Assembly (NCBI GenBank): GCA_001662655.1
Contig: KV460227.1
Reading direction: 5' to 3' (one strand)
DNA length: 64,000 nucleotides
Origin: Pseudogymnoascus verrucosus
Lineage: Eukaryota
Within the stretch, counting starts at the first letter, position 1; each line of letters opens with the position of its first letter. The translations under genes and the position numbers were made by a program. The notes below the pieces were generated by a model. The model was not told the origin of the DNA. It did not search any database and worked only from the letters and a program-made list of their open reading frames with translations. Shown piece by piece: positions 25,544 through 53,591 of the stretch.

Positions 25544-25840
25544 GGGTGGGATTGGTGGGGGGGAATGATTAGTATGTTTATACGTATATTTGCTCTGTAT
25601 AGAAAGAAAATATCTAGCAATTCATTCCGTAATTATTTAACAACACTGTTCTGCTCACAATCGCATTGTATTATTGTTGGTGCGTCCCCATCAAACACGC
25701 CTGTCAACCACAGCCGCACACACAAGGCTGCGTTAACGAGCCGCGCCGCCGAAGTTTATTTCACGGACCTCACCCAAGCTTCCCGGTCCATCGCGACCAC
25801 TCCCGCGACCACAGCACAGCACACCACAGCAGAACCACAA

Positions 25841-27895
25841 ATGCCGCCACGACTCCCACGGCTAGCCCCCGGGCGACTGCGACTGGCGCGCACCGACAAT
25901 CTGCTGCCGAAGACGTCGAAATGTTTACTCTGCCAATTCAATGCGGCGCCATCAGCGGGTGGTGGTGGGAGACAGGTACCGCGTCGGCGGGAGCAAACTG
26001 GGATCGCAGCTATGCCGCGGGCGCGACGGGGACTTTCTACTGCGACTGCGACTGCGGTGGTGGAGGAGGAGGATATTGAGACGAAGCCACTTACGCCTAA
26101 ACAAGCAATTGCCGAGCTTGAGAAAGCACTGAGCGACCTCGAGAAACACGCAGTTGGGTACGTCAACCTCCCGCGCCTACGACTGGCGCAGCGCGGTGTC
26201 GAGCAGCAAGGTGGGCAGGAGGTTATACGCGTTGCTGTCATTGCGCTGGCGGGGCAGGGGAAGTCCACGGCGAAGAGTAGGGAATTGATACGGTTGCTTC
26301 TTGCGGATCCGTTGAAGGCGGAGGAGGAGTGGGAGAGGAGTTTGATGGGGACGGGGGATCCGGTGTTATTGCGTATCAGCCACCGCTCTGGCGGGGTTGT
26401 GGAGGGGGGATTCAAGAATCGGCTGGTGAAGGAGGTGCAGATCTCTTCAGCGATGTTGAATGACCATTACCTCGAGATTCTGGTTATTGACGGAGATGTC
26501 CTGACGGAATCCGAGGAGGGGACCGCGGGACTCACAGAGAACGTGCTGGTTCCCAATATCCAGATCCCCGCGTCATTCGGCGCGCACTACTCCCCCATAA
26601 CAGCACCAGTCCATAAAGCCCTCGTAGTAGGCGACGGCATCCTCGGCGCTGCATCGCTTCTTCGACTACCGACAATGGAGGGGGATCTCATCCAAACCGC
26701 CGTCGATCTACCATCCAGTATCCACGACACAGACGCCACCACCAGCCAATTCCACTCCGTCGACGTATCACTCGGCACTTCCGCCCTAACCGCCTTCCGC
26801 GAAGACGTCGGTAACGCACTAGCATACGAACACCAATGGACCGCCTCCGGGCTCCCCACCCTCCGCGACTGGGTCATCTCCGGCTCCTCCTCCTCGTCTG
26901 CAGCACCGCTAAAACCACCAGTCCACTCCCTCATCCGCTCCCTCCTCTCCTCCACAGAAGAGAAAATCCATTACCGCGAAGCCTCTGCCCTATCCGCCGC
27001 GCTGTCCGCAAAAGTGTCGTCGGCAACCACGCAATCTCTCCAGCGCGACCTGGATGAGTGGGCAGAAGCTGCGCACACGGAACTGCGCGACCAGCTCGAC
27101 CTCGCGTTCTCGGGACGGCGATGGCGCGCGCTGGCGTGGTGGAAGTTGTTCTGGCGCGTTGACGATGTGTCGGCTATCACATCTGATATTCTCGCGTCGC
27201 GATTCCTTACTGGGGCGGAGCAGGAGGTTATATATATCGCTGGGAAGATCGACGCAGCTGGTGTGCTTGGGGAGGCGAAGACTCCGCTGCCTTCGGGTAA
27301 GAATTGGGCGTATAAAGATGCGCCGCTGATACGCGATCCGGAGGAGGAGGTGCCTCTTGGTGTTGCACCAACCACAGAACCCCGCGTCAGGGATGTGATT
27401 CCAGTTATTGAAACACCCCTCGACGGACCCATCGCCACACCAGCTATAAAAGCACACCCCTGGCCTCTCCACATCCCCCTAACACGCTCCTACATCGCCA
27501 CAACCAGCATTCCGCGTCTGCAAGCCCTGGCGCAGAAACTCGTCGCGCAGACGCTGGGGACGACGGTGTTTAGTTCGGTGTTCGCGGGGCTGATATATGT
27601 GTCAAATCTTAGTGTTGGGATCTATGAGGCTGGGGCGGTGGCGGCGCTGGGGACGGTGTGGGCGCTTAGGAGGATGCAGGCGGGGTGGGAGGGGGGGAGG
27701 GGCTGGTGGGAACGGGAGGTTAGGGAGGAGGGGAGGAAGGCGGTTAGGGGGGTTGAGGGGGTTATGGGGGGGGTGTTGAGAGGGGGACAGGGAAGGGGTT
27801 TAGGTGGGGGAGAAGGGGAGGGGGTGAGGGAGGCGAAGGAGGCGGTTGTAAAAGCGAGGAAAGCGCTGGAGGTTGTGGAGGGGGGGGAGAAATAG
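25841..27895 (+). CDS. Mmc1-like protein with putative mitochondrial presequence (684 aa)
   Basis: Arg-rich N-terminus MPPRLPRLAPGRLRLAR; AHTELRDQLD...WRALAWWKLFWRVDDV; two C-terminal hydrophobic helices. Confidence 0.7.
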   Translation: MPPRLPRLAPGRLRLARTDNLLPKTSKCLLCQFNAAPSAGGGGRQVPRRREQTGIAAMPRARRGLSTATATAVVEEEDIETKPLTPKQAIAELEKALSDLEKHAVGYVNLPRLRLAQRGVEQQGGQEVIRVAVIALAGQGKSTAKSRELIRLLLADPLKAEEEWERSLMGTGDPVLLRISHRSGGVVEGGFKNRLVKEVQISSAMLNDHYLEILVIDGDVLTESEEGTAGLTENVLVPNIQIPASFGAHYSPITAPVHKALVVGDGILGAASLLRLPTMEGDLIQTAVDLPSSIHDTDATTSQFHSVDVSLGTSALTAFREDVGNALAYEHQWTASGLPTLRDWVISGSSSSSAAPLKPPVHSLIRSLLSSTEEKIHYREASALSAALSAKVSSATTQSLQRDLDEWAEAAHTELRDQLDLAFSGRRWRALAWWKLFWRVDDVSAITSDILASRFLTGAEQEVIYIAGKIDAAGVLGEAKTPLPSGKNWAYKDAPLIRDPEEEVPLGVAPTTEPRVRDVIPVIETPLDGPIATPAIKAHPWPLHIPLTRSYIATTSIPRLQALAQKLVAQTLGTTVFSSVFAGLIYVSNLSVGIYEAGAVAALGTVWALRRMQAGWEGGRGWWEREVREEGRKAVRGVEGVMGGVLRGGQGRGLGGGEGEGVREAKEAVVKARKALEVVEGGEK

Positions 27896-28566: not shown

Positions 28567-29171
28567 ATGTCTCCTCCGCCACATGTTCCAGACGCCCAGG
28601 ATGACTTGGCTCGCCCGAGCAGCTCGGGTTCCATGCGCCGATTAGGCAGTATGGGGAGGCGACGGACACAGCCCCCGGAGTCGGCGTTGCGCAAGAATAC
28701 AAATTTCGCCAAGCTCGCGCGGCAGTCGACAGAGGCCAGCCTACTGCCGAAGGGGCCAAAACCGGTGCGGAATACATGCGATGCGTATGACTTGCCTTGG
28801 GAGACGCTTAGGGATTATTTGGTGGGGAAGTTCCCAGAGTATATGGTTAAGATAACAGTAGGTTATTACGTTCGAAGGCTTTCGCCTATTATTTATGATA
28901 CTTGCGACGTGTTTCTCATGCTGACTGCCACGCCTCTAATAGTTAGAAAAGGACCTTTATATCTTTAATTTGCCTGAGTTATTGACGACGGTAAGTTGCC
29001 AACACATTTAGCGCCCGACTATGTCTGCCATGTGTCGCTAATCAAATGGTTGTTGGCCTACAGGAAGACCACAAAGCCATCGACAGATTACGCGACAATA
29101 ACAACAACACCGCCAACAAGGAGGTCGTCGAGGAGCGGCTATCCCAATCACCAGAGCCCGGGGAACCATGA
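28567..29171 (+). CDS. Small hypothetical protein (about 148 aa), 3 exons, directly upstream of the CorA-like gene
   Basis: GT-AG introns 28858-28942 and 28991-29063 give one open frame ...LPWETLRDYLVGKFPEY...KDLYIFNLPELLTTEDHKAIDRLR...EPGEP*. Confidence 0.6.
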
Positions 29172-29561
29172 GAAGAGTGCTGTTGGGAGTTGGTTATCTA
29201 GGACTTATATATCCAATAAAATAAACTATCTGCTCATGCACGCTGCCTGCCTGGACCGTTTTCCGTAGCCCGTGCTGTGCTAGAGCGGCTGAGCAGGGGT
29301 GGTGGCGAAGCTGCGCCGCAACAACGTAACGGGGGTCAGCAGGATCAGGCGAGGACCTGGCAAGGCGTCGCCCAAGGTGGATCGCACTGACGTTTAAATG
29401 TGTAGCAGGGGGAAGCTCGATTCCACATAAATAGTATAACGCCCCGAGAATCGATTGCGAGGGTTAACTAGCATTGAAACGGTCAACAGCATCCCTGCAT
29501 TGAAGCAGCCCAGCTCACTTACTTTGATCGACAAAGTTTGACCTGCATATTTCCGCCTACC

Positions 29562-31496
29562 ATGGTTGTAGCTCCCGTGGTGATAGCTCCCGCGCTTCCC
29601 GACTCTTTCAAGCTCTCGTATGAGGACTTTGAGTCCTACCCTCATAACCTCATATATAGGACGGCCTGTACAGCGGTTCTCAAGGCGTACGAGTCCAGAC
29701 TAAAAGAGGCGTCATCGGCACTATTCATCGGGGAGGATGGGGAGGATGGAGCTGCAGACATTCCGTTTCGTGATTTCAGGGGACGAGGCAAGTTCTCACA
29801 TTTATATCTCAAGTTTTCAGTACTAACGCCATGTGCAGCTTTTGAGAGACGTAATATATTTAACGATTCCAAGCTAAAGGATTGGATTGGGGATCAATCG
29901 TCAATCGATCCTCTCGTGGCGACGCTTACTGGAGAGCTCGCAACGAAGTCTGATCCAAAATGCCGCTTCATGTAAGTGATAACATCCCGATGCCCCCTTG
30001 AGATTTAAGAAACTAGCTAGCCACTAACGATACATAGCTTCATACACGCGGCAAATAACTCCCGGCAGCAGCTTAGAATCACGCGAAAAATGATGCTCCG
30101 AATACTGAGTTATCACCAAGTCATGCCAGGCTATCTTGATTTCTTGTTCCCCTTCGGACTACAGAGCGTACCGCGGGATTTCAGGTTCAGTGCATTTCGC
30201 GAGCAGACTCTGCTAAATTCCCCATCTCGCGGGCCGGCTGTTCCTGGCTTGGGGAGAAGTGGGCGGCAGATTCAACTGAGCTTCAATCTCAAGGGTGTTT
30301 CCTGCACTTCGGACGCGAAAGTGTCTTTGCGGGAAAAGCGGTGGTCTCAACGGCAGGCTGCCGTTCATCATCAGTTTGATGTGGAACTTGGTACGACGTT
30401 GTGGATACTCACGAAGGGAAACCTGGAGCTTAAAGATAGGATTCAAGATGTGACTGGTAAGGATGGAAGGCTAGAAGATCGGTCTTTTGGAACAGTTGCC
30501 CAGTGCTTAATATCTAGCTTGGCAGTTCATCTCTTATTGTGTCAGTGGTCGTGTGAAGATTGGCGGTGGTATATTCTATGGCTAGAGGAAGTCATCGCAT
30601 ACGAGGTAAGCCAAATAATATACATTCCGCGGCAGATAATACTAACAATATCATGTAGACGAGGGAGGTAATCCTACCACGCGGCCCCGGAGAAGTACGG
30701 TATGAGTATAGACCGGAAGATTTTCAAGGCATTCAGCATTATGAGGACCAGGCCAGCCAAGTTTCCATGATCCTCGAAGCGAATTCGTATGTGCTCGAAT
30801 CTCTCCGCGCATACTACAAGGGCCTGTTAGACAGGAGTGACTTTGGGGTAATGGATTTATGTCGCGAAGAGGTTCTTTCATTTTGCTCACAAATCGACAA
30901 TATGATTCACAACGCCAAGATGGAGATTGTACGAGTTAAGACCCTGGTTCAAATCACATCTAGTAATAAAGCTCTGGTAAGTTATTTACATGTTATTGTG
31001 TATTTGTCGATTTTCTCATACACTAATGGAACTACAGGTCCTACAACATATCCAGAGCCAGGCAACCGAAAAGATGGAGAAACTAACAATAAGCATGCAT
31101 CAAGTCGCGGATCTGTCTCGGAAAGAAGCAATTGCAATGCGAATAGTTACCGTAGTCACACTAATCTACTTGCCAGCAACATTTGTATCCGTAAGTCTCT
31201 CATTTATCCCCTGTAAATACTCCTTTACTAACCCTCCGAAGACCTTATTTAGCACCGACATCGTGAAATTCCAGGACCAAGGAAATGGTGGCACAACCGA
31301 TTCCCTAGGCAAGGCATATGTCTCGTTCTCTAGTCTTGCTCTCGTTAGATGGATTCAAGTCACACTACCTCTGACAGCTCTGACCCTTACCCTCGGGTAC
31401 TTAGCTTTTAGAATGGCGGACAGGAAACGGAAGAGGTTCGGGTTACAACCCGAGGACTTGATGGATTCGATGGACTCAAAGGAAAGTATTGTTTAA
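29562..31496 (+). CDS. CorA-like transporter domain protein, multi-exon
   Basis: Introns 29788-29838 (GC-AG), 29972-30037, 30606-30658, 30977-31037 and 31191-31241. Motifs ILSYHQVMPGYLDFLFPFG and QAAVHHQFDV, a coiled stalk, and two C-terminal TMs (MRIVTVVTLIYLPATFVSTLFSTD; WIQVTLPLTALTL). Confidence 0.75.
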
Positions 31497-32188
31497 AAGA
31501 CTTCATAGATCCACTACTGTATATTACTTGGCTGGCCAATATCACGACGAAATGACAATAACAGGAAGTTCTTGATGAAACCTGCTCGAACATTCATAGC
31601 ACAGTGAAAAAACTCGACATTAAATTCGTCTAACCCCTAGATATCCAATCTTATTCCTCATCTCGAGAACACCCGCTAATACCATTAATCTTCTCAAACT
31701 CCACCACTCCCACCTACTCAGGCGCCTTAAATTTCACACGAGTACGCCCCATTGCTAAACGAGATATAATAAATGCATTAGCTGGTTGGCGGACGGGTGG
31801 TTATGCTTAAAATTAAAGTTAGCGGGCCGGCGGGAGGGCGGGGCTAAGTAGGGGTCTGTCGTTATGTAACTTACCTTTTTCTTAAGACGTAGATAGACTA
31901 AATTAGAGTACGCGTTCTATACTCTCATCTACTGCAAACAAACTCCTTTCCGCGTCTCTCCTCCCCCTTTGTACTTTTGTCCTAGGTATATGTAACCAAC
32001 CCTTCAGCTCCCTCATTTACCTAGCTACCTTCCCTAAAAAGCACCTCTCACCCTCATCGAAACACTAATCACTCCTAAACTCCGCTATCGAATCCTCTAT
32101 GCGTAGCTATCTCTTATGGACAGAAGAGAGACAAAAAATTCGAAGGATTTAGAGGCTCATTAAGTTTCGCGGAAATACTGTGATTGAA

Positions 32189-35100
32189 TCACCGTGGGTG
32201 ATAACTATGACGAGAGGATCGAGTAAACTGCTCCCGCTGTGGTTCTGCCGTCGCCGTGTTTCTTCGCACCTGTGACGATATGGGCTGCCTCGTTGCTAGT
32301 TCGAACAGGCCAGTCTCAGCAGTGCTCGAGGTCGGGAAATAATTTGTTGGCTGCTGCAATGGGGTCTCCGTTAGAGGGACGCCATCTAATTCTGAGATTA
32401 TAGACATAGTAGCCGGCTCCTCGTCGTCGTCGTATTCTTCGACGAAGCTTCCTAGAAGCATTTTGTTAACATCCCCCGAGCAGTGCTCGAAGTCAACAAT
32501 GTCCCTACATACGCAGTTAGTAGCTATACCTCTAGAGAATAAACTGCTACAAGGAGGCACTTACGGAATTCCAGAGTATACTAGATCGTCATCTAATCTC
32601 CGTAATCTGCTCGTCGCATTTGGGTCATGGCCGAATTGGATGAACTCTATGCTCACGGGCCGATGTTTGAGGTTGCCAAATATTTTCTGTACTTGGTTGC
32701 CAAACTCTATGATCATAGTGTCGACTCCGTTCTTGTCTTCCATGCCATCCCACTTGCCATCCGTAAGAACAATCAATGTAAGGTTTTTGCTCCAGCTCCC
32801 CCTTTTCTTCGCCACTTGAAAGTATTCGTAGAAGATATCCCCAAGTGATCCCTTCATGTCGGTGTGCAAATGATCTCTTGGCCGTGCTTCTTGATCGTCC
32901 ATGGCGTCTGTAAACTTAGATACAACGTTGCTATTCTGAACCGAAATGTTTCCGAAAGTGAAAGAGAGGTCCATTCCATTGTCGTCTTGGCCTATTGCTT
33001 TTAGTATGAGGGTTTCAAGTAGAAACTTCGCATTAGCCCAATATCGACTCATCGACTCGGCATTATCTACTAGAAATTTCTTAGAAGTATTAGTTAGGTT
33101 TTGCCATATTACTTTTATGATATGCAACTTACTATATCTCGATTACTAAAATGTCTGGAAAGGAGTTCATCTTTAGTGGTCTTTCTTCCGAACAGACGCA
33201 TCTTTGTACGGCTCTTAACTTCTTCGCGGGCTTGGAAGATATCCTGCGGCGGGTTGGTTCTCCGTTTCCGGTTCACAGGACGTTGCATAGTTGTAGCAAA
33301 TGAGCCGATTTGCATATATCGTGGGCTAAGGGGTGCTTCTGCATCTTTTCTGGTTGATATGTTCTCTTCTTGAATCCGGGAATTTCTCCGGTTTAATGGA
33401 CGTGGCTCCTCATTGACCTTCTGGGTTACCGGCTTATGAGACGATGGCACAGTTATAGAAATTTCAGGATACTCGTCATCTGTTTGGAAGTTGACATATG
33501 AATTACTCAATTCTGACTTGAGATACTCGGAACGTCGGGCCGTCATCTTCAAAGGGGCTCCAAGAAGTGCCGATTTTTGGGCTTGACGCTTATCAACAAT
33601 TGTAGGAGATTCCTTTGGCATGGTGAGTTCATGGGTGGTGCTTGCCATTGACTCCTTTGGGGGAGCTTCGTCAACCTCAAGAAGAGCCTCCATGATAGCT
33701 TTTGGGAGCGCCCGGGTTTCAGTTTGCATGTGAGACTTGATATCGTGTAGTTTTTTACAAAGCTCGGTTGCCTTGATTCGACAACCCGCGTCTCCCACAA
33801 ACATATCTTTGTCGATAAGATCAAGCACGCTGCTGGTAATAGTATCGGACTTGCGTAATACGCTTCGCAAATATGCATGCCAGCTTAGCACATCAGGGAG
33901 AACTTCTTTGCCGTTATGGAAATGGTCTAGGTCAGGGTGAGGTCTGGTGCGATGTGCAGCCTGTTCTTCGGAACTATTACGAATTGATCTTTGGCGCAAC
34001 CTCGTAAATTGCCGTATGCCTTCATGGCCTAGAACAACCCAGGTCGCAGCGATAGAAAAGACGCACCCTAGGGACCAGATGTCGATCGTTTGCGAGACTG
34101 CTCCTTCCCTTGTTCCGCTGCTAGAGTATCGGCGTTCTGGGGCACCTAAACCAAAATGTCAGAAGGCCGTGCCTTAGATTAGCATCACATTAATAATTAC
34201 TTACTATATGTCTCTGTGCCTCCAGCGACGACCTTCTTGGGCTCCGTTTCGGTATTTTTCTTTTTCACAAACGTTGCAAAGCCAGGGTCAGCTAATTTAA
34301 ATTTGCCTTGAACAATCAGAATATTATCCGGCTTAATATCCGCGTGCCACCTAAAACCGTCCGTCAGCTTCATAAAACCATTACCTAGGTTAGTACTTAC
34401 CCATTGAATTCTTGCGTTCGACCTTCCGTGTTTACCTTCAAGTGGTGGATGTGTTTCACTGCATCGGCTACATCAAACAGGCATTCCCAAAAGGATTTGA
34501 TCTCACTTTGGAAGACCGGTGGGACAAATTCCATAAAATATTCATCTAGATCGTGATCCCCATATTCCAAAATGATATTCGAGGTATTTGCCTTTATGGT
34601 CCCGGTTTCCAATGTCCCACCAGGTGTGATGATTTGGGGACTGGATGATTGGCGAATTTCAACATGCTCGTAATCGCCCAAATACTGTATCATGCCTGGA
34701 TGGTCACGAAGAGCTAGAAATGCTTCTTTTTCGTTTTTGAAAAGATCTCGTTTACCTTCGTCAAAGGTTTTTATAGCGAAGTGATATCGCTATAGTACGG
34801 TTATTACCAACACATTCTCATTCCCACTTTTGTGCTTCCGCAGCTGAAGATGAAAACCAACTTACCTGGCCAATGTCATCATTCGGGTCATTGTAGTTGC
34901 CATCTTTCGCAACAGCTCGAGCTAGATTAGGATCTACAAACTCCTCGGCGACTTCGATTTGCCAGAGTTGGGCGGTGGCACCCTTGTCGTTGATTTTCTC
35001 CTTTCTGTAGAATGGCAAAATATGGTCTACAACCAATTTGCGTCCCCTTCTCAGCTCAAATGTAGTTGGGCAAAACTGCCACTGCAAGTTGTTGAAGCCG

Positions 35101-35513
35101 TTTGCTAATGAGTTTGAGTCGCTTGTAACCATAGTTGCAGCCTTCTCTTGTAATGAGTGGAGGTTGATTGGAAGGTGTTTGTCGCAAATATCTTGTCTCC
35201 AGAATTCATCGATTAGATGGCCACAGTCAAGTTCGAGCAGTATACAGAAAACAAGAAGGCACCCATTGCGTTTATCAGACAATACATCCCGCGAGATTGG
35301 GAGAACGGGCCTATGACGGCTGCGTTTGCGGTATGCGAAATCAAGAAGATGGCTCGCCTGGGATCTACCGTCTGTTCCATTGCTCTCTAGCCAAAGCTTG
35401 AGCTTCTTCACCAGAACATAGTTTCGCCCACAGGCAGCTTTTTGGGTATATTTCTTTCGGGCAGCTCTGAAATCGGCTATGGCTGAGCTGTGATCGAGGG
35501 GAAGATTGTCCAT
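32189..35513 (-). CDS. Protein kinase fused to a C-terminal vWA domain, 6 exons
   Basis: Kinase motifs FAIK, NEKEAF, WHADIKPDNIL, KLADPG, GTETYSAPE, DIWSLGC. vWA motifs FLVDNAESM, LIVLTDG, VSIEFIQFG, LDDDL. Introns 34865-34790, 34400-34351, 34204-34146, 33132-33080 and 32564-32505 all keep frame. Confidence 0.85.
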
Positions 35514-36292
35514 CGTCGTGGGCTCGGGGTAGGGAATTCAAGGTAGGATTTAAGGGCAGACGGTCGGCGGCTTGGTCTCGAAAATGCTGCGACTGCGATC
35601 CCAATGTAACAACGGCATGCAGTCGCATAAGCCTTGTATAGGTGAGAGAACTCGAGGCTATAATCTGATGGCAGGTGCTAGGCGACTCAGACTCGGAGGG
35701 CGAAACAAATGCAATAGGATGTAGTTATATCAGTTTTGCGCGGAATGAAGAATTCGAGGCTGGGACATGCGCGCGCAGGCAGCTGGTGACTTGGACTCGG
35801 TCGGTGATGGTAGGAAACAAATGCAGCAGGCTTCAGTTAGAGTACATGAGTCGCGTATCTGGGCGCACGATTGTCACATTCAGGAGGGGCTCATCGGCGA
35901 TGTCAAGGTCCCAAAAACAAATATCCCCCGATAAAGAGATGACAGATTGAAAGAGAAAGGCGTGAGGCTGGCAGAACACGGCGATATTCCTTCAGCTGTG
36001 GCGGCTGGAGGCCTGCACCCCGCGGTGCAGGCCAGCCTTGCTACTGTCACGCAGACACACACGTGCTTTTGTGTCGAATCTGCTTTGATGTTAGGTCATT
36101 CTGTTGCATAGTTCGATCAAGATGAACAGTAATATTTCAACGTGAGAGTCTATAGAGGAAGATAAGATGTTTCTATGTTTCTTAGAGGTTGGTAGCAACT
36201 TCTAAGGGAGAAGGAGAGGGTCGAATTTAATGGAATGAGAGATTCTTGGTACTGTATCAGGCATGGTCACGTGAAAGTAGTACCATAAGCGA

Positions 36293-36804
36293 GGTAAGCA
36301 CGCTAATCTAGTATCCGCTAATCCACTTATCGTCGGAGCCGACGCCTTCAACCCGTCGGTTCCGACAATTAATCCGACAATTCCCCCCCGCTAAACCCAA
36401 CTAATCAAGGTACAGCCCTTACTGCCCCTCTTTCCCCTCTATTACCGCCTAATCTGAATGCAGCAGGAACTACTAATTACGATACGGATATCCTGTACCG
36501 CAGTGTTGTTCTAGTTTGTACCGCTAATACAAAATTACTACTGTAGGTACTTATATAGGTCTAGGTTATTGCTAATTATTAGATAAGTTGCCCTATAATA
36601 ACCTTAATGATAGAAGACAAAGGACAAACCTATATAGAACAACATAGTTACTACTACTATTAGGTATGCTGTTATACGAAAGGGGTTATATATATTGTTA
36701 GATTGCTTCATAATATGCATAATGGCTTACTATGAACGCCACAGCGTAAATCCGTAAATATAACTAGCAAAAGATCGATAAACTGCCGTTGCAGAGGGCT
36801 GATC
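36293..36804 (+). repeat. Left ~512 bp direct repeat, RIP-like mutated copy
   Basis: Colinear with 49639-50167 from ggtaagcacg to gagggctgatc; differences are mostly C>T and G>A. Confidence 0.93.
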
Positions 36805-37871
36805 CTAACCCTAAGCTCTAAAATGTCCTCTTTCTAATTAGGGACAGGGTAATATTTATAGGAACATTCTGCAACAACGATATAATGTACGATAGGATGA
36901 TCAAGGCGTTTAACAGTACAATTACGTTTGTAGGAGAGGAAGAACAGGCAAATGCATAGGAGAGGCGAGAATTTAGGTATTAGCATTTTGAGGCGTATTG
37001 TTACCGCGCGCCACTTAGGAAAGCTGTATGATACAGTGATAGTATGAGATGTATTAAGTTCCGATTTCAACCTCTCTAATCAACAAATAATCCTATTCAT
37101 CATCAGAGTCAGAGTCTCTGTTCTTTAACTCGTTGCAATAGCGGTGGGAGAAGGAGGCGCAACAAGAAAGCTCTTGGAATACAGTAAGAAAATGATAGGG
37201 CGAAGATGAGATGAGAAAATGGCTAATGATTTGAAAGTACAGGGTTCAGAAGCACGAAGCGCCCAAGGGAAATCTAGAGGGCAATGTGGATGGCAGTAGA
37301 TCCCGAAAGGAATGATTGGATCTAGTAGCATTCAGCTCCCTAGCCGTAGCTTATAGGCACATGGCCAATATAGGCGCTTTACTAGCCGCCCAAAGACATC
37401 CATCTCCTTGTATATTGTGGATGCAGTATAATAGCAGCTCCCAACAGTCACTCCGGGGTGTTGCCTGCTGTATCCCATTATTAATAGGCCTCGTGATCTG
37501 GCTGCTTTATGCAGGGGCTTCGGGGTGATAGATTAGCACCACATGAAGAACAGTTAATAGCATTAATTGTGAGCCCTCAACGCGTGTATAGTGCTCGAGT
37601 ATGAAGTCGGCCTTTACAACTATACGGATGATGGCGATTTAAAGTATTTTAGTCTACCACGTTAAAACCTCCTCATCGCCTTCACATCCCACAACCTTTA
37701 CCATAAGATATATATGTATCATTAGGGTGTATCACCCAAGCTACTACTTACATACATGTGCAAGAAAGTTGTCAAATATACATCTCTCATCATGACCGTC
37801 GTTTTACTTTGCAAAGACAGCAGCGTGTATGGTATGGATACAACCTAATTGGTACCTTTCCTGAATAATAT

Positions 37872-39852
37872 TTAGTTTTTAAGCTTAATCAGTATCCACG
37901 AAGCCACTCGATACCCAAGTACAATAGCCACCGTGATACCTATATTTCTACCAAACTGCCCCTTCTCTTCATATCCATACCGCTCCAAGACCGCTTTTCC
38001 AGCAACCTGGCACTGGTTAGCCAGGTCTGAGGCGTACATACAGCTGCAATGAGTGCCGCAGCTGTACTTTGCGCCGCGAAACTGGCTGACCATCAACCCC
38101 TGGAATGCGTAGGCGAGGTAGTCCCAATAGTGGATTCCGAAGCGGTAGAAGGGGTTTAGACTAGAGTATGAAATGAAGAAGCCCTGGCCGCAGAGGAGCA
38201 GACTGTTGAGGAACGAGGAGCAGGCTATGGTGAAGATGAAGTCGGGAAGGATGCATGCTACTACGACGACGAGGGCTTCGGCGGCTAATGCGGTGAGGAA
38301 GACCCAGAGAACCCAGGTGAAAAAGGCTGTGGCGGAGGGTACAAGGTTGGATAGCCAGTAGCAGGTGATAGAGAAGACGAGGCTCAGCAAGAAGTTGGTT
38401 GGTATGCTGATGAGGAAATTGGATACTGCAAACTCAGTGGGACCGTACAGGCCATTGTGAAAATCCTGCGCGGATTGCAGGTAATCCTCAATAAAGGCGG
38501 GCGCATAGATGATGGCCGCCATAGACATGAAGCAGAGCGCAAAGAAGATTTCGCTGACCAGGAATGAAATCGACTCCTGCTCGAGGTCGAGGCGCAGCCA
38601 TACTGTCCCAATTAAAATGGCAAAGCTGAGGGAAAACGCAAGCCGGATGCCGTAGGCCATAGGGTCGCGATAGGTCTTGACGAGGCTCCGGTGTAACAAC
38701 GTCACTGTCCGACTGCCCATTCTTGGTCTGTTGTTGCCTGACTCGATCTTCAGACATTCAGCTCCATTTTCGGCACACAAGATGGTGTCGTGGGCGGTCT
38801 TAGCGTTAGCAGATGCCTGCCAGGCAGACTGGAGCTCCACGAGTCGAAGAGCGGCATATACTTTATCTTGTGAGAAGTCAATGTTGACTAGCTCAAGAAG
38901 GAAATCCGGGACATTCGAGTGGAGTGGAATCTCGATGCCAATGTTGCTATAATACGCAACCACATCTGACACTGCGCCGAAGTAATGCGGCTTGCCTGCT
39001 GAAATTAGTAGCAACTTGTCAAAGAGGTTAAAAATCGATGTAGAGGGCTGGTGGATCGAGAAAATAATGATAAGGTTGTTTCTTCTTGCAAGGGCTTGTA
39101 GATATTGGACCACCTCAAAACTGGCGGCTGAATCAAGCCCTGACGTGGGTTCGTCGAGAAATAGAATCCTAGGTGACACTACGAGCTGTCTTGCGATTGC
39201 CACGCGCCGTTTTTGGCCGTCCGAAATGCCCTTGCGCAGCGATGTCCCGATGATTGTGTTCGCCTGGTCAGTGAGACCAAAAGATTCAAGAAGTGCGCTT
39301 ACTTGCACCAAACGTTCTGTCGATGACCTATTAATGTTTGTCAGCGTCTGTTAAGGTATATGCAGGTAGATTTCATGGCTCAATGCTTAACTTACCCATA
39401 TCTAGCAAGTCGCGAAGGAAATGACAACGTCTCATAAACGGATAGGCCTCCAATGAATACTTCTTCCTGGTTGACAAGGCAGCTGGCTTGGCGAAATTCA
39501 GATTTCGTCAACGGTCTCCCATTAACAAGAATGCTGCCTTCGATGCTCTTAGCTTTTGTTGACCGCCTGGCAAGAACATTTAATAGGGTTGTCTTTCCGC
39601 TCCCTGAAGGGCCCATTATGGCGCAGCATTCTCCTTTATAGATGTATTAGTCTCTTTCGTTGGAATACTCATTCTGGAAATTATAGAATAGAACGAACCA
39701 GCTTGTACAACTCCTTCGATATTGTCCACCAGGGTTTTTGATTGCTTGGTCTTGCGATCGGTGACGGTAACAGTAATACCACGCCATGTGATATTATGAA
39801 CAGTGGTATTGATTAGTTGCTTCTCTGAAGTAGGGCGCTGCTCTAGATCCAT
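37872..39852 (-). CDS. ABCG / White-type half-size ABC transporter (NBD-TMD), 3 exons
   Basis: Walker A GPSGSGKTT, signature variant ISDGQKRR, Walker B ILFLDEPTSGLD, SIHQP, six TM segments. Introns 39698-39634 and 39395-39328. Confidence 0.9.
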
Positions 39853-40883: not shown

Positions 40884-41461
40884 CCGGGTCATTTATACGA
40901 ATTGTTGCCTATTTTCAGACCGCTAGACCATAATTAGATCTCTATGTCTCAATATATGACCTGGCTGGTTCTTGAGCCAATTTGTTCGTGCCCCGTGTTC
41001 AGATCCCCATTTTCAGATCTCTTGGTAATGATTAAATCCCTATGTCTCATTTCATGGCTAGCTGATTCCCAGACCAATTTCTTCTTGCCCAATTGTCATA
41101 TCCCCCGCTTAAACACAGAGTTAGAGATGGATATGACAAATAGCTGGCAGGAATGTGTAAATTTAGGGTACAGTTTCGTACATCATCACTAGGAGACTAA
41201 CTTGGGCATATACATCTACGTGGGTGGGTACGGTGTACGAAAAGAAAAGAGGGTGAATATTGAATCTCGCTGCATGAAACTAAGCTGAGGTAAGACAGAA
41301 CTCATAGAGTCACTAGAAAAGACTAGTCTGGCCGAAGGGTCTTTGAAAATGTGATAATGGCCCTATAGAAATGTTACATAAGACTATTATCCCTCTGTAG
41401 AGGCATTCAGCTACTCAATCACATCAGATACTTCGTCAAACCCTTGGTATATGCTTTTCAA

Positions 41462-44400
41462 ATGGATCATAGCAACGATGAACCCATCGCGGTGGTTGGG
41501 ATCGGATGTCGATACCCTGGCGGCATTTCATCCGTCACGGAATTCTGGGAGGCACTTCGAAATGGAAGCACCATGATGTCCGATATCCCACCTGATCGGT
41601 TTGACCATCATTCATTTCATGACCCTAATGGTAGGAGTCATGGTCGGATACAAAATACCAAAGGCGGCTTCATCCCAGATATTGACACATTTGACGCCGA
41701 GTTTTTTGGATACTTTCCAGCGGAAGCCTCCCGAATGGACCCTCAACAGAGGTTAGCCCTGGAGGCTTCCGTCCACGCCCTCGAGGACTCGGGGATCCCA
41801 TTGCACCAAGTAGCTGGATCATCCACTGGGGTATTCGTTGGAACGTTCCAGAATGATTACGCTGCCATACAAGTGAACGGCATGCAACGAGACCATTTCA
41901 ACCCTCATTCCAGTCTGGGTAGCGCAGCATGTGCCCTCTCAAACAGGGTGTCACATCGGCTAAACCTGCAAGGCCCCAGCATCACAGTGGACACTGCGTG
42001 TTCGTCGAGTTTGGTAGCTCTGCATCTCGCTTGTCAAAGTATCTGGACAGGAGAGAGCACGGCTGCCATTGCTGGCGGCGTAAACGCAATTCTACGGCCC
42101 GAACCTAGCATCCAACTTTCTACGTCCGGATTCCTGTCGGCGAGTGGGGCCTGCAAGTCGTTCGACAAGGATGCGGATGGTTATGTGCGTAGCGAGGGGG
42201 TTGGAATGGTCTTTCTCAAGCCCCTGAGCCGTGCATTCAAGGACAAAGACAGGATATACTCACTGATTCGAGGATCGCTGATCAATCAAGATGGGTATAC
42301 TGAGGGCGGATTCGCCGTTCCTAGCGCCAATGCCCAGATGGACCTCCTGCAATCTGTCTATCAGCGTTACGGGATTGATCCAGGTAGGGTTTGTTATGTT
42401 GAGGCTCATGGATCAGGAACTCAGATTGGTGACCCTATTGAAGCGCAGGCCCTGGGCGAGAAGATTGGACTGGCCCGCTCAAAGGAAGACGTACCTCTGT
42501 TGATTGGGTCTGTCAAAGGCAACTTAGGCCATATGGAGGGTGCCTCAGGTATCACTGGCTTTATTAAAGCTGCTCTGATCGCGTTCTACGGAGAGGTTCC
42601 CCCGCAGGCCAATTTTCAAACACCTAATCCTGCCATCAACTTTGAGAGGCTCCGTCTTGCCATTTCGACAACAGCAGCCGTTCTCCCACGAGGTATTAAC
42701 GGCGAACTAATTATCGCTGTCAACTCTTTTGGCGCAGGAGGAACAAATGCACACATCATTCTTCAAAATGCACCTCCGCAGCCATGCCAGCGTGCAAGTC
42801 GCTCTTCTCAAGCTAGAAATTGCCCCCAACTCTTTACCGTATCCGCCCGGTCTGCGGCCGCACTATCTGATACAGTCAAAGGGTTGGATCGACAGCTACG
42901 AGCGTCTCATCCTACAATAGAGGATGTTTCATACACTTTGAACATGCGACGAAGCCACCATTCCGAAATTTCCATTGTTGCGGCTTCAGGGATTGAAGAT
43001 CTCTGTTTCCAGCTCGAACAGATCGCGTCTGGGGAAGCATCGAAGGGAGTCTTGTCCTTCCGGCGGCAATCCGAAGTGAGGCCAAAGGTCGCCTTCGTAT
43101 TCTCTGGTCAGGGAGGCCAATGGGCCGGGATGGGCATGGGCCTTGCCGCTCAAGAACCTATATTTCGACAATCACTGGCTGATTTTGACGCGCATTTCAT
43201 CACTCTCTCAGGATGGTCCATTCGCGCAGAGATAGCCGCTTCCCACGATGACCCATTTTCTGCTGGCCGCACGATCGTAGTCCAACCGGCGATTGCGGCA
43301 ATTCAGATTGCATTGGCGAAGACATTGTCCTCATACGGCCTTAGGCCAGACGCTGTTGTTGGTCACTCTGTTGGTGAGGTTGCGGCCGCCCATATCAGTG
43401 GTGCCCTAACTCTTGAAGAGGCGGTAAAAGTGATCTACTGGAGGTCTCTAGTACAGAGCAAAGCCCAAGGAAAAGGGGCGATGTTAGCAGTCGGATTATC
43501 ATCTGCTGAACTACAGCACCACATCTGGCGACGCCGGTTGAAAGCACAAATTGAGATCGCTGGTATGAATGGGCCCCAGATGACAACATTAAGCGGGGAG
43601 ACAGAGGCTTTACAACAACTGCTTGAACATTTTGAGCAACAAGGGATATTTACGAGGTTTATTAAGGTCGACGTTCCATACCACAGTCGCTTTATGGACC
43701 CTCTTCGAGATGAGCTTGTAGACTCGCTCTCATCTATCAGCGGCGGAGAGGCCAATATCAGTCTCTACTCCACCGTTACAGCATCCATTGAACCTGGGAC
43801 TCATCTGACGGCAGAGTACTGGTTTGAGAACATTCGACAGCCGGTAAAATATGTGGAAACTGCGGGTAAAATATTGAAGGATGGTTATGGTTTCCTTATT
43901 GAGATTGGGCCTCACCCGGTCCTTGTCAGTGAAACCCGTCGCACTGCTGATGTTTTGAAGATGCCCGCTAATATTCTTCCCTCTATGTTTCGAGATAGTG
44001 ACACTGTACCCTTTTCACACCTAATCGGAGCAGCGCATGCCATGGGAGTTCCCGTGGACCTGGAATCGTTTGCCGGAGGTTGTGGGAAATTAATCGATCT
44101 GCCACTGTATCCGTTTCAACGCCAGCGTTATTGGTTCGAACATCCGGACGCACACCGCGTTCGTCGAGCGAAGGACCAACATCCTTTTCACAAGAGCTAT
44201 ACACGGCTGTCAGATGATGGCCTCGGTGTCCTACACCTTCGCCTTAGCACTGGGGTCTCGCCATTTCTCGCAGACCACGTCTTGGATGGAGCCGCTGTCT
44301 TTCCCGCCACTGGGCAGGCGGAGGCTGTGTTCCTAGCTGCTACAAAGCTCCTGCTTCCACAGAGTGCAACCAGTATTCGACTACAAGATATGAGATTTGA

Positions 44401-47400
44401 ACATGCCCTAGTGATGGCCGCAGCCGATGACTTCCCTCCACAGGTCCAGCTAGAAATTACCTCTGCCGCCCATGATTTCATTCTAAGCTTCCGAGCGGCT
44501 GATTCTAGCCCGGCTGATGCATGGCAAGTGATCTGTCGCGGACGGATCGACACATCTGATTCATTCTCACGGCCTAGCCTAGAAATGCTGGATACCGTAC
44601 AGTCACGAATCCAGACGGGAGAGGAGGTAGACATCAAAACATTCTATTCGACCTTGGAGAGAGCAGGTCTTCGGTACGGCGATGCCTTCCGCGGTGTACA
44701 GAAGATTTGGCGACTAGGGAACGATATCTTTGGGCTGGTAACGCTCCCCAAACTGCTTCACCAGGAGGCATCTCGCTTTAGAATTCACCCTGCCTTACTA
44801 GACGCATGTCTGCATACTATATATGTTGAACAACACTACCGTGGAAACTCCGCAGAAGTCTACCTCCCTTATGGCATCGAACATATAGAGATCTTCGACG
44901 CACGCGGGGCAACAGCTGCCGCAGTCCATGTCCAGATTACTTGTCATGACGAAATTTCGATTTGCGGCCGTATAAATGTCTACGACGCCTATGGCGAGCC
45001 GCTCGCTATTATGACAGGTGTCCGCGCAAAGCGTGTGCCAGGTCGTAGCGTTCCTAGCGTGTCTCAGTACGATATCTCTTTTCTCCCAGAGCCGGACAAC
45101 CAAATAGTTAAAATGGACTTTGAAAATGTGCTTGTACTTGAGCCGCTAGATCAAGCCTTGGACTGTACTCCCGTCATCCAAGGGGCATTTCCACATGCCC
45201 GTGTGCAGATACTCCAGCGCCCCTCCGCTCTAGCACCGCCCAAGATGCCCGTCAATCTGGATTTCCCTATGGATGGTCGCTCCCTCGTCCTTATTCCCAC
45301 TATAAGGAACTGTCACTCTGTGGGTTCAGCTGCAGACCTTCAGCTCAGTCTAGAATCGACTGTTAGCACACTTGTGGATATGGCGAACCGTCTTCACTCT
45401 CGCCAGGGGATTCCTTGGGTTATCGTTATCAGCCAGGGAGCCTGTGTTACACCAACCGATTCCCAGTGCGACCCATTCTCTTCGGCCCTACAAGCGGCAG
45501 TAAGGGTCATGGCAAATGAACTTCCATGGGTTCGAATCCGGTTGGTTGACCTTCCCCTCGGTCAGGTTCATGACTACCTCCCGTTACTCGGGGACGAGAT
45601 TGTAAGAGCACGACTAGGCCGAGATGAGAACGTAGTGGCGTTACGGTCAGCTGGAAGATTTGTCAAACGAGTTGTTCCCATCGAGACTGAGAATAAACAA
45701 AATGTAATGATGATGCCTGCTCGTGGCGGAGAGTACTTCGCGGAGCGTGATCGCGGGGGCTCCCTCGATGCAATTCATTTCCGGCAGCGTAACCCAGGAG
45801 AGGCTGTCTGCCTTGGACCGGATGATGTGAGCATCGAGGTTCATGCTGCAGGCCTAAACTTCAAAGACGCCATAAATAGCATAGGCATGCTAAGTGAGCG
45901 CGCTACCGTCGGGTCGCTGTCTGGGCTCCGACTTGGGTTAGAGGTCTCAGGAGTTGTGAGGGATATTGGTGATAACGTACAAAAGGTCAAGGTTGGGTCT
46001 CCAGTTACTGCTCGTGTGTGCGATGGGATCGCAGGGCATGTTGTAGCCCACCAGAGTCGGGTTAACCCCAAACCTACGCCGCTCGATATGGCGGAGGCCG
46101 CTGCTATCCCGGGAGCTTTTGTAACTGCACACTACGCCCTAGTGCACCTTGCTCGGCTTACACGGGGTGAGACCGTCCTCATCCATGCGGCCGCGGGTGG
46201 TGTGGGCATGGCCGCCATCCAGGTTGCTCATCTTGTTGGTGCCCAGGTATACGCCACCGCGGGCAGTCCCCACCGCCAAGCTGTCGTGGCCAAGTTACCA
46301 GGCGTTCAGGCGGTGTTCAGCTCTCGTTCCGCGTCATTTCGCAACGGCGTTAAAGCTGCTACGCATGGTCGCGGGGTAGACGTGGTATTGAACTCGCTAA
46401 GTGGAGAGCTCTTAGCTGAGTCGGTTGCGTGCCTTGCGCCTTTTGGGCGGTTTGTAGAGATTGGAAAGACTGATATCTACCGCAACATGCGGCTAGGACT
46501 AGAGCAATTCGGTCAGAACTGTTCTTTCTTCGTCGTTGATGTCGACAGATTAACCAAACAAAAACCAGCGTTAAATAGTCAGATTCAAGATGAAGTCGCC
46601 ACGTTACTCGAGACAAAGCAGCTCAAGTCCTTCCCTATAGTCAAGTTCCCCGTCATAGAACTGAAAACGGCGCTGACTGCGCTTTTACGGTCCGAGATCA
46701 TTGGGAAGGCCGTGGTTGAGATGCCTGATTTGACTGAGGTCCCCGTCGTTCCATGCGACCGACTTCACTTGCGTGGGGATCGAGCCTACCTCGTGACTGG
46801 AGGCACCAGCGGGCTGGGTTTGCATCTTGCTGCATTTCTGGTTGACCGAGGAGCGCGACATTTGGTGCTAGTCAGTCGGTCAGGCCCAAAATCGCCAGAT
46901 GACCAGGCGACGATCGACGGCCTGCATCGGCGTGGTGTCAATGTATGGGTTGAACGAGCAGATATAAGTTGCAGCGAAAAAGTCAATGCTCTATTCGCGC
47001 AAGGTAGAGAATGGCCAACGATATCCGGGGTCATCCACTGTGCCGCAGTGGCAGGAAATGAATTGATAAAGGATGTCACGACTAATACATTCCGGCAGGC
47101 CTTTGAGCCCAAGGCGATGGGGGCATGGCACCTACATGAGGCCACGAAGAACATGCCACTAGATTTCTTTGTTTTAATCTCATCTATCGCCACTTTAGTC
47201 GGATTTCCTGGACAGTTGAGCTATACAGCTGCTAACCAGTTTCTCAATGGATTGGCACATTCTCGTCGTCTCTCCGGCCTGCCCGCACTGGCTCTTAACT
47301 ACGGCGCTATGGGGAACTTTGCTGGTATTTTTAAAAATTCAACACAGGACGCTGACACCATAATCCAGCTTAATATGACCAGAGGCGTGTTTCAAATAAG

Positions 47401-51838: not shown

Positions 51839-53591
51839 ATGAGTGATGATGGTGGGTTATGGGAATTTTATATATGGATATGATGGATGGATGGGGAGGG
51901 GAGCCAAGGCCTACGGGCGTGTGCTGAGGGATGGATGGATAGCAAATAGAGAATGATCTTGGTAGGATGTGGAATAAAAGCCAATTGATCCCCCCAATGA
52001 ATTTTTACGTGCTGGGTATGTGAAGTTGGAGGGTGATGATGGATAGCTAACTATGTGCTTCCTATTCTCACTTGAGATAAGTCTCGGCCGCCCTCAATCC
52101 TACACGAATGTCGAGAGTGCCCGGTGGGTATAAATACAACGCCAAACTCCCCCTTGACGTTTCTTCCTCACAGCTACAATATATTGGTTTGATTGCGGCT
52201 AGCGGAATTCGAATCGACATAAAACGTTTGAACCAGGTCGTATAGATCATTTCAGGCGGCGGGCTGTCTCGTGGAAAGTTCGGGTTCAGATTCGGTGGGC
52301 TCGTGCTGGTGCTGGTGCTGGTGCTGGTTCTGATTCCGGAATTGTTGATGTTGTTGCTGTCGAGTAGTTCTCACCGTCAACCAATGATTTTGTCGTTTAC
52401 GCATGCTGTTGTGGGCTTTTCTGTCGCCGAACAGAAGGGGAACGTTTTCGCCGGAGACTTCTCACACTGGCCTGCTCGGTGGATCGTCCCTGTACCCGAC
52501 GATCTGTGTTGTCCTCTTTCCACCCTATGACTTGCGGTATAATATATCTTCTGTGCAGAACTGGGGGTTTTATAGGCTGGTGGGTGGATTGGTGGTTTGC
52601 GGAAGTGGTTGTCATATATGTCACTGATATGTGAATAGATGGGGGCAAAACTCGGAGGTATGGATATATCTGTTTACAGTTCCTCTTCGAGGTACGTCTT
52701 TTCCACAACTCCCCCGCTCGAAGAGGATATATGAAGGCAGGTGAGTATGTCAGCGAGGAGCAGCACAGATAGACCCGTCAGACTAATAATCATGGGTTAT
52801 ATAGTGGTCGTGAGGGAGGAAGCGGCGCTATCAAAACTTTCGTCCCAATCATAGATGAGGAAGAGGCGCAAAGGAAGAGTATGAATAGAGTCCGGGAAAG
52901 AGGAAAAATAATTCCGTATTTCGATGGATGACGAGGTAGTGGTTTGGAGGGCTCTCGGTGTCGCGCTGTTGTCACCAGGCCGCTGTCACCGAGGATGCTG
53001 CAACCAGATGTTTTTGTCACCGAGACACATTCCAAATCTTGTTGTCGCCCCGAGGTTCGCTGGCTGTCAGTCGTAATATTCAGACTTGGATTCGATTGTT
53101 AACGCCCTCGGCAGCGATATCTATCAACGGCTTCTACAAACCGTACTGGGATGCCATGTAATCGTCATCAAGGTAGCCATTCTCGTCTATGCGCATCATT
53201 GCAACATACTGTGAACTATTTATACCCCCATCAATACTGTTCTAACTGTCTTTTGAGGCTAGTTCCCAAGACAAAAATGAAACCACGTGATATCGTGTCA
53301 CTAACGCGGTGCTGCCTTCCCTTGCTCTCACAAAAGCCAAAGGGTCACAATTGAACCCCGCGTGACAATAGCCACCATGCACTCTTTTACCCTGAGCCCT
53401 TGCTCTGCTCAAATTACCGCCAGCACATGAACTTCATCTCCAGGCTACAACGACAAACAGATCAAGAAGCACAGAATGAAGTTGACGCGATAGACACGCC
53501 GAGTGACAGAATTTTGTCGCGTTCTCTGCGTGTATGCAAGTCATCGCCGCGACGCAAGGGTGGCACTGACCACTCACACTTCCCGCGATCG

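Follow-up and report, generated by a model that had tools for sequence, protein, structure and literature searches.

A conserved three-gene module of Pezizomycotina encoding a small protein, a CorA-fold membrane protein and a kinase-vWA protein

The window analysed here is a 64,000-nucleotide stretch of contig KV460227.1 from Pseudogymnoascus verrucosus (Leotiomycetes, Thelebolales), in which three adjacent genes encode a small protein of 148 residues (gene 1), a CorA-fold membrane protein (gene 2) and a protein that carries both a kinase domain and a von Willebrand factor type A (vWA) domain (gene 3). We find that this trio represents one instance of a three-gene module that is conserved across Pezizomycotina. 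The gene structures, folds, catalytic residues, motifs, conserved adjacency and co-divergence described below are established. We consider it quite probable that the three genes are functionally coupled and, with less assurance, lean towards a phosphorylation-controlled CorA-fold channel or sensor with a small phospho-adaptor as the mechanism as a whole.

Linkage of the three families across fungi

Linkage of the three families in other genomes had been chosen beforehand, in a preliminary description of the locus, as a test able to refute it, and this linkage holds strongly in metagenome contigs as well as in named genomes. The metagenome survey covered JGI contigs picked by the CorA-like alignment alone and runs one way, from the CorA-like gene; its 80 loci gave 63 groups after merging at 97% nucleotide identity or more. 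A kinase-vWA gene adjoins the CorA-like gene in 21 of the 27 groups whose downstream sequence reaches 2 kb or more, lying on the same strand 0.7–2.2 kb downstream in 19 loci and divergently upstream in two. Each of these 21 neighbours matches the N-terminal domain specific to the gene 3 family (hereinafter the N-domain), and they are therefore not just any kinase. On the other side, at least one of two gene 1 motifs (A and B, Table 1) occurs upstream of the CorA-like gene, on the same strand and at 0.5–1.4 kb, in 25 of the 30 groups whose upstream sequence reaches 1.2 kb or more, and both motifs occur in 17. The pattern for motif A has 26 matches in 88,864 bases upstream of CorA-like genes compared with 0 in 925,350 control bases, where motif B has a single match. 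Searches by tblastn with gene 1, with P0285 and with the N-terminus of P0025, a public model in which a gene 1 homologue is merged at the start of the CorA-like gene, lead to the same upstream places independently of the motifs.

No other flanking family of open reading frames (ORFs) is common to more than 3 of the 23 long loci, and the unit therefore consists of exactly these three genes. Their usual order is small protein, CorA-like protein, kinase-vWA protein, with the kinase gene inverted in Pseudogymnoascus. Adjacency is kept in three arrangements (tandem, divergent and, in the window, convergent) and has therefore outlived rearrangement.

Named genomes give the same picture. Consecutive locus tags (VE01_05300/01/02, V499_01012/13/14, V501_08467/68, VE00_02666/67, V494_04413/14, V492_05363/64 and Q9169_002521/22) are found in seven of them, namely P. 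verrucosus, five other Pseudogymnoascus strains and the lichen fungus Polycauliona sp. 2. Six public models (P0005, P0016, P0030, P0100, P0114 and P0116) merge a CorA-like with a kinase-vWA gene, and gene 3 is 45% identical to one of these, P0030, over 934 columns. Linked members in named genomes come from Leotiomycetes and Lecanoromycetes, and members of the CorA-like family are also named from Dothideomycetes, Eurotiomycetes, Sordariomycetes and Geoglossomycetes. Budding yeast is not represented among the homologues listed in these searches, which does not establish absence there. Given that at least one trio gene is annotated not only in 12 Pseudogymnoascus strains but also in several Pezizomycotina classes, the suggestion that the surrounding block is accessory is doubtful. 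A pattern scan of prokaryotes with the CorA-like alignment, covering one genome for each of 185,579 species, returned 11 matches, none of them confirmed; the scan is a weak one, its patterns being family-specific.

The two larger genes also co-diverge. Pairwise distances in the CorA-like and kinase-vWA families of 18 taxa correlate with a Mantel r of 0.667, compared with a maximum of 0.445 in 2000 permutations, and both gene trees recover the clades {L005, L032, L069} and {L007, L047, L049, L065, L079}.

Some genomes hold more than one copy. One assembly carries two divergent complete trios, L014 on a contig of 1.44 Mb and L032 on one of 281 kb, which fall into different deep clades in both trees; this suggests an old duplication of the whole unit, provided that the assembly represents a single organism. 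Cudoniella acicularis has two merged models, P0016 and P0100. The first of them ends, at residues 1362–1485, in ankyrin repeats in place of the vWA match, and is either a paralogue with a swapped C-terminal interaction module or the product of a further merged neighbour.

Gene models and predicted proteins

We read the region by eye and spliced it at GT/GC..AG borders. As the preliminary description had proposed, the locus holds three intact multi-exon genes, with the small protein and CorA-like genes in tandem and the kinase-vWA gene convergent with the latter: the spliced products equal public proteins letter for letter, and the outer coordinates of the locus, 28567 and 35513, are the ATGs of genes 1 and 3 (Table 1). 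Of the 10 introns in genes 2 and 3, 9 are supported at exactly the modelled borders by spliced contigs from sequencing runs X1–X3, all five in gene 2 and four of five in gene 3; the intron at 32505–32564 is bridged by no contig in these runs. Gene 1 has neither cover nor an intron joint in the same contigs, which are uninformative on its expression. In a fourth run, X4, the whole stretch is present unspliced in one contig.

The first intron of gene 2 (29788–29838) has 51 bases, is in frame and has GC..AG borders; it is joined in one X1 contig, and its removal shortens the product from 567 to 550 residues. Such an in-frame intron is invisible to frame analysis, and it is kept in some public models (P0004) and cut more widely in P0001.

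Table 1 Coordinates of the three genes and of their main features in the window
Feature	Position	Strand	Identity or basis
Gene 1, small protein, 148 residues	28567-28857, 28943-28990, 29064-29171 (stop included)	+	VE01_05300 / P0288
RRRTQP, residues 31-36 of gene 1, in the disordered N-terminal part	28657..28674	+	Copy of the recurrent RRx[S/T] / Rxx[S/T]xP motif
Motif A of gene 1, WETLRDYLVGKFP, where the small-protein family is most conserved	28798..28836	+	Pattern search, family alignment
Gene 1 exon 2, motif B YIFNLPELLT	28943..28990	+	20 matches upstream of CorA-like genes, 1 in controls
Gene 2, CorA-fold membrane protein (predicted fold), PF26616, 550 residues	29562-29787, 29839-29971, 30038-30605, 30659-30976, 31038-31190, 31242-31496 (stop included)	+	VE01_05301 / P0290
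S-T-D replacing the GMN of CorA, loop after transmembrane helix 1 (LPATFVS/TLFSTDIVKFQ)	31251..31259	+	Family alignment
Gene 3, N-domain, kinase, long linker, vWA and disordered tail, 1008 residues	35513-34866, 34789-34401, 34350-34205, 34145-33133, 33079-32565, 32504-32189 (stop included)	-	VE01_05302 / P0302
Gene 3 exon 1, N-domain, about 215 residues	34866..35513	-	Known only with this kinase family; no Pfam match
Kinase domain, exons 2-4 (3' limit approximate)	33800..34789	-	Pfam on homologue, family alignment
Catalytic loop HADIKPDN	34346-34323	-	Within the kinase domain
vWA-fold domain, exon 5 and start of exon 6 (3' limit approximate)	32430..33079	-	AF2 model, Foldseek, VIA

The product of gene 2 had been called a CorA-like protein with two transmembrane (TM) helices, a designation that stands at the level of the fold and fails at the level of sequence, where the Pfam threshold is missed. 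A search with the largest exon of gene 2 found 170 proteins at E ≤ 1e-3 among 652 candidates. On all 120 homologues listed (the best 120 of the 170), including P0001, which is 99% identical over the query exon, PF26616.1 is precomputed, a family that UniRef names as a fungal 'CorA-like transporter domain'; PF01544 (CorA) is precomputed on 15 of the same 120. The cutoff of PF01544, 27 bits, is reached neither by the window exon (12.8 bits) nor by P0001 (16.8 bits) or P0009 (26.4 bits). A family profile run against PDB sequences retrieves no CorA and just two unrelated rows (E 0.11 and 0.29), and a fold search was therefore needed to place gene 2.

For the fold search we used an AlphaFold2 (AF2) model of P0001 (pLDDT 80.6, pTM 0.72), which is identical to gene 2 at 542 of 550 residues (98.5%). 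Foldseek aligns this model with T. maritima CorA at E 3.5e-7, and all 21 rows listed are CorA or ZntB. In VIA, a comparison independent of Foldseek, ranks 1–11 are all CorA, ZntB, CmaX or Mrs2 (Z 17.1–10.3), and the next, unrelated helical rows have Z ≤ 10.1. The Z scores are 17.1 for T. maritima CorA (root-mean-square deviation (rmsd) 6.7, 299 residues), 16.9 for M. jannaschii CorA, 16.1 for CmaX, 15.3–15.6 for ZntB and 11.7–12.5 for Mrs2. The cytoplasmic domain of ZntB matches with Z 15.6 and rmsd 3.9 over 232 residues, so the cytosolic part is included in the match. The product of gene 2 is thus modelled with the full CorA-superfamily fold, comprising a cytosolic alpha/beta/alpha domain, a long stalk helix and two C-terminal TM helices.

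In CorA channels the GMN motif at the outer end of TM1 has a role in Mg2+ selectivity. The LPxTF end of TM1 is conserved in the gene 2 family, and the loop that follows carries S-T-D at the place of GMN; these residues (S464, T465 and D466) are nearly invariant in the family alignment and belong to the conserved stretch LPATFVSTFFSTDVVKYQ. Among the 93 homologues with the LPxTF motif, GMN occurs in none and [SG]TD[VIL] in 75, and most of the remaining 18 seem to stem from gene models with read-through or skipped introns. Compared with the pentameric divalent-cation channels CorA, ZntB, CmaX and Mrs2 (PF01544), gene 2 is alike in its whole fold and in the LPxTF end of TM1, and differs in S-T-D for GMN, in an N-terminal extension, in a longer TM1–TM2 loop and in its conserved trio with a kinase. 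Conservation across classes is strong, with 32 invariant columns, many near-invariant ones and a mean column identity of 40%, and no hypervariable region was seen in the alignment.

Gene 3 had been described as a kinase-vWA fusion, which is borne out by the Pkinase score and, for the vWA, by the fold, the vWA falling below the Pfam threshold. P0121, 96% identical to gene 3, scores 62.5 bits against Pkinase (PF00069) at a cutoff of 31.7. K223, E236 and H348 are invariant in the kinase alignment and D350, K352, N355 and D367 nearly so; DFG reads DPG in most members, and APE is present. With these catalytic residues intact, the kinase is predicted to be catalytically competent. The closest solved kinase is TTK/Mps1 (E 5.1e-19), with the next family at 4.8e-11. 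A search with the N-domain found 15 longer homologues, 14 of them with Pkinase; its nearest clusters in the Protein Atlas are Ascomycota hypothetical proteins without a Pfam family, which we take as a lead only.

The vWA exon, fifth in the gene, has at least 605 relatives at E ≤ 1e-3 in a library clustered at 50%. Pfam VWA (PF00092, 23.8 bits) gives no match on the window exon at E ≤ 0.1, and homologues peak at 22.6 and 21.9 bits (2 of 20); a profile of the family has a best, non-significant E of 0.19 against PDB sequences. The AF2 model of this domain (pLDDT 95.5) has 18 Foldseek matches at E ≤ 0.001, the rows listed being vWA domains, with ANTXR2 at 2.3e-5, and VIA aligns 137–161 of its 171 residues with Rpn10, ANTXR2, BON1, factor B and integrin I domains (Z 13.5–12.1, rmsd 2.6–3.7). 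The metal ion-dependent adhesion site (MIDAS) of the window protein consists of D-N-A-E-S with a later T (in TDM) and D (in LTDG). The family form is D-x-[A/G]-x-[S/T], then T, then D, with four of the five MIDAS positions kept: D737 and T805 are invariant, D839 is nearly invariant, the third position of the first element usually holds A or G, and the fifth holds S or T.

The sole P. destructans member of the 90% cluster of gene 3, P0300 (VC83_08986), has 124 residues, 112 of them shared with the N-terminal part of gene 3. The kinase-vWA gene may be truncated or decayed in this bat pathogen, or the P0300 model may be incomplete.

The small protein begins with a basic, disordered N-terminus and finishes with an acidic tail whose last residues are SPEP; between them lies a conserved domain of about 50 residues, interrupted at the gene level by a conserved intron. 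Both introns of gene 1 keep their positions among the metagenome homologues. The small protein's best Pfam match has an E of 0.025, far below the cutoff, its family profile returns no rows from PDB sequences, and its first match in the Protein Atlas (0.88) lies under the 0.9 line and is a lead only. Judged by sequence, it appears to belong to no known family. Close homologues number only two among proteins of similar length.

The disordered N-terminus recurrently carries a basic phosphorylation-type motif, in many cases RRxT[L/I]P. Of 29 small-protein N-termini, 23 contain RR.[ST] (mean 4.0 and maximum 12 in 1000 shuffles) and 18 contain R..[ST].P (mean 3.9, maximum 10); these counts are not independent events, the 29 sequences being related to one another. 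At the C-terminus, RRxSxSPEP occurs in four loci, and the related LSQSPEP ends the window's protein. Basophilic kinases have RRxS/T as their consensus, and RxxpS/TxP is the mode-1 14-3-3 motif.

Proposed coupling of the three products and competing explanations

Protein contacts, who phosphorylates whom, what crosses the membrane and the cellular role we infer as follows. The CorA-fold protein would presumably be a pentamer with two TM helices per subunit, and its non-GMN 'STD' mouth suggests that it lacks classical Mg2+ selectivity. The C-terminal vWA, with four of five MIDAS positions, may serve as a docking or cation-sensing module of a cytosolic kinase, recruiting it to either the cytosolic funnel of the channel or the small protein. 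The latter, with RRxT and RRxSxSPEP in its disordered ends, could be a phospho-regulated adaptor or gate regulator. A complex prediction with CorA-like residues 1–430, the vWA exon and the small protein as partner gave a score of 0.01 and a mark of 0.34, with alignments unused and the partner's fold uncertain, and speaks neither for nor against contact.

Several points weigh against such coupling. The available flank of 6 of the 27 loci (L024, L031, L045, L046, L057 and L066) holds no kinase-vWA gene, and 5 of the 30 upstream flanks hold no gene 1 motif; these loci mean that either the trio is optional or certain CorA-like paralogues occur by themselves. The gene 1 patterns were written from the same loci that they score, which makes their sensitivity circular and leaves specificity alone controlled. 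Merged gene models are probably annotation errors and prove same-strand adjacency, not fusion, and the distance correlation may come from shared species history alone. The intron support comes from runs of a single study (X1–X3) whose library type is unrecorded, RNA being the tool's guess. As to mechanism, the first MIDAS serine is absent in most members of the family. TTK/Mps1, nearest among solved kinases, is not known to be basophilic, and the RRxT sites may therefore belong to another kinase such as PKA.

An alternative is that the trio acts in conflict, that is in defence, allorecognition or regulated cell death: the CorA-fold protein would be an executioner that breaks the membrane, licensed by the kinase-vWA protein as sensor and checked or triggered by the small protein. 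Its analogues would be the SAM-AMP-activated CorA effectors of type III CRISPR and the kinase-controlled MLKL. A CorA-fold protein without GMN is unlikely to be a classical Mg2+ channel, CorA-family membrane effectors occur in Bacteroides type III CRISPR (PMC10600005), and kinase-vWA fusions act in plant immunity (Lr9/WTK6-vWA; PMC10260399). The vWA of the copine BON1 is among the tied best structural matches (Z 13.1), divergent copies coexist (P0016 and P0100 in C. acicularis; L014 and L032 in one assembly), and the 124-residue fragment of the kinase gene in P. destructans hints at loss. However, a hypervariable recognition gene would not be expected to show the strong conservation across classes seen in the CorA-like protein, and the trio is present in many strains of the genus and is not patchy. 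No NLR, HET, HeLo, gasdermin or protease gene is a conserved neighbour of the trio, and a search listing counts no occurrence of 'CorA' in five reviews or surveys of fungal cell death and immunity, nor in any other paper it names. We regard this explanation as unlikely; a role in cell death or defence is possible but unsupported, as are the membrane pore, allorecognition and antitoxin functions suggested in the preliminary description.

A bolder proposal, to which we likewise give a low probability, is a eukaryotic pore system of its own kind. In it, a GMN-less CorA-fold pentamer would be gated by a dedicated TTK-like kinase docking via its vWA, the small RRxT protein would be the phospho-switch, and the components would be inherited and duplicated as a matched set, for use in regulated cell death or defence of filamentous ascomycetes. 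If this were true, matched-set inheritance and duplication would explain the divergent copies in one genome, and the trio would be an independently arisen fungal counterpart of bacterial CorA effectors and of executioners such as MLKL.

Ordinary ion homeostasis, in which the CorA-like protein transports another divalent cation, as do ZntB and CmaX, and its neighbours are only co-regulated or held by chromatin or regulatory constraints without dedicated physical coupling, is in our view improbable. It is consistent with the match to the whole CorA/ZntB/CmaX/Mrs2 fold, cytosolic domain included (Z 15.6 for that of ZntB), with conservation as strong as that of a housekeeping function, and with the 6 of 27 loci that lack a kinase neighbour. 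Against it, adjacency persists through three arrangements and at least two classes, which unrelated fungal genes do not usually show, conservation extends to no other flanking gene, and the two larger genes co-diverge. The N-domain of the kinase-vWA protein and the small protein were met only in this context in these searches, and a plain transporter would leave its conserved partners unexplained. That the trio consists of chance neighbours or an annotation artefact, three unrelated genes together in this genome, is scarcely credible even though, a priori, most adjacent fungal genes have no functional relation, being refuted by adjacency repeated in 21 of 27 and 25 of 30 independent contigs, by motif controls with 0 and 1 matches in 925 kb and by consecutive locus tags in seven named genomes.

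Functional coupling of the three products, the reading we prefer, does not make the trio a member of a described system. The bacterial analogies offered in the preliminary description, CorA effectors of type III CRISPR and TerY-phosphorylation (TerY-P) systems, fail as memberships, the defining features being absent. The TerY-P triad comprises the vWA protein TerY, a PP2C phosphatase and a Ser/Thr kinase in separate genes. The fungal trio resembles it in pairing a vWA with a Ser/Thr kinase in a three-gene unit, and differs in that vWA and kinase are fused, no phosphatase is conserved nearby and the other members are a CorA-fold and a small protein. TRPM6 and TRPM7 likewise couple a cation channel to a dedicated kinase, and Dictyostelium VwkA joins a vWA to a kinase; these, however, are alpha-kinases, with a TRP-fold channel in the former case, whereas the trio has a conventional eukaryotic protein kinase and a CorA fold in separate neighbouring genes.

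The CorA effector of type III-B CRISPR in Bacteroides fragilis is alike in being a divergent CorA-family membrane protein beside presumed regulators and a proposed regulated pore. Only its C-terminal 172 residues are CorA-like, and its N-domain has a fold of its own, unique to it, that binds SAM-AMP (PMC10600005); the cytosolic domain of gene 2, in contrast, is itself CorA/ZntB-like. The partners there are Cas10 and NrN/DEDD, whereas gene 2 has a kinase-vWA protein and a small protein in a eukaryotic, intron-bearing locus. Among plant proteins, Lr9/WTK6-vWA shares the order of kinase then C-terminal vWA in one polypeptide, and its vWA is thought to mediate protein-protein contact (PMC10260399). 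The plant proteins have Vwaint and receptor-like kinase domains, two kinases in Lr9, whereas gene 3 has a kinase near TTK/Mps1, an N-domain of its own and a CorA-like neighbour; Vwaint has no match among 20 gene 3 homologues scanned at E ≤ 0.01.

Literature searches, whose scope lay outside supplements and subscription journals, found nothing on PF26616, on six locus tags of the trio or on the trio itself. Within that scope, nothing was found on 'CorA-like' in Pezizomycotina, and CorA-like combined with von Willebrand and kinase in fungi gave a single, unrelated paper. The parts thus come from known superfamilies, and their combination matches no described system that we found.

In fungi, genes outside metabolism seldom form conserved clusters. 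The present cluster joins three families without described function, PF26616, the kinase-vWA family and the unnamed small protein, and the linkage makes three 'hypothetical proteins' one testable unit in lichen fungi, black yeasts, Xylariales, Helotiales and others. It offers a handle on the role of GMN-less CorA-fold proteins in eukaryotes and on that of a vWA on a cytosolic kinase, the latter also a question for the wheat resistance protein Lr9. Should a role in conflict prove true, the trio would add a new type of executioner to fungal immunity.

Genomic surroundings

Immediately upstream of the trio lies a conserved gene, an Mmc1 homologue (25544–27895, plus strand; Mmc1_N E 4e-24, Mmc1_C E 2e-55). 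The G+C content is 0.595 at this gene compared with 0.45–0.51 in the trio, and falls from 0.60 to 0.42–0.51 across 28–42 kb. The lowest value of the window, 0.423, is reached at 36001–38000, between the trio and an ABC transporter gene, in a segment without long ORFs.

That gene, of ABC-2/ABCG type (37872–39350, minus strand), lies 2 kb upstream of a highly reducing polyketide synthase gene on the opposite strand (41369–48793, plus strand), a single ORF of 2474 residues with the domains KS-AT-DH-ER-KR-ACP-TE. The two look like a secondary-metabolite cluster directly beside the trio. We rejected the trio as a part of this cluster: the polyketide synthase and ABC genes are not conserved beside it elsewhere. 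Further along, at 53355–58094 on the plus strand, an open frame of 1579 residues has no Pfam family at E ≤ 0.001.

The minus strand encodes a DUF7730 protein at 5856–6638. DUF7730 is also found at residues 1354–1553 of P0114, the merged CorA-like/kinase model from Teloschistes, whose DUF7730 end probably comes from a third neighbouring gene there.

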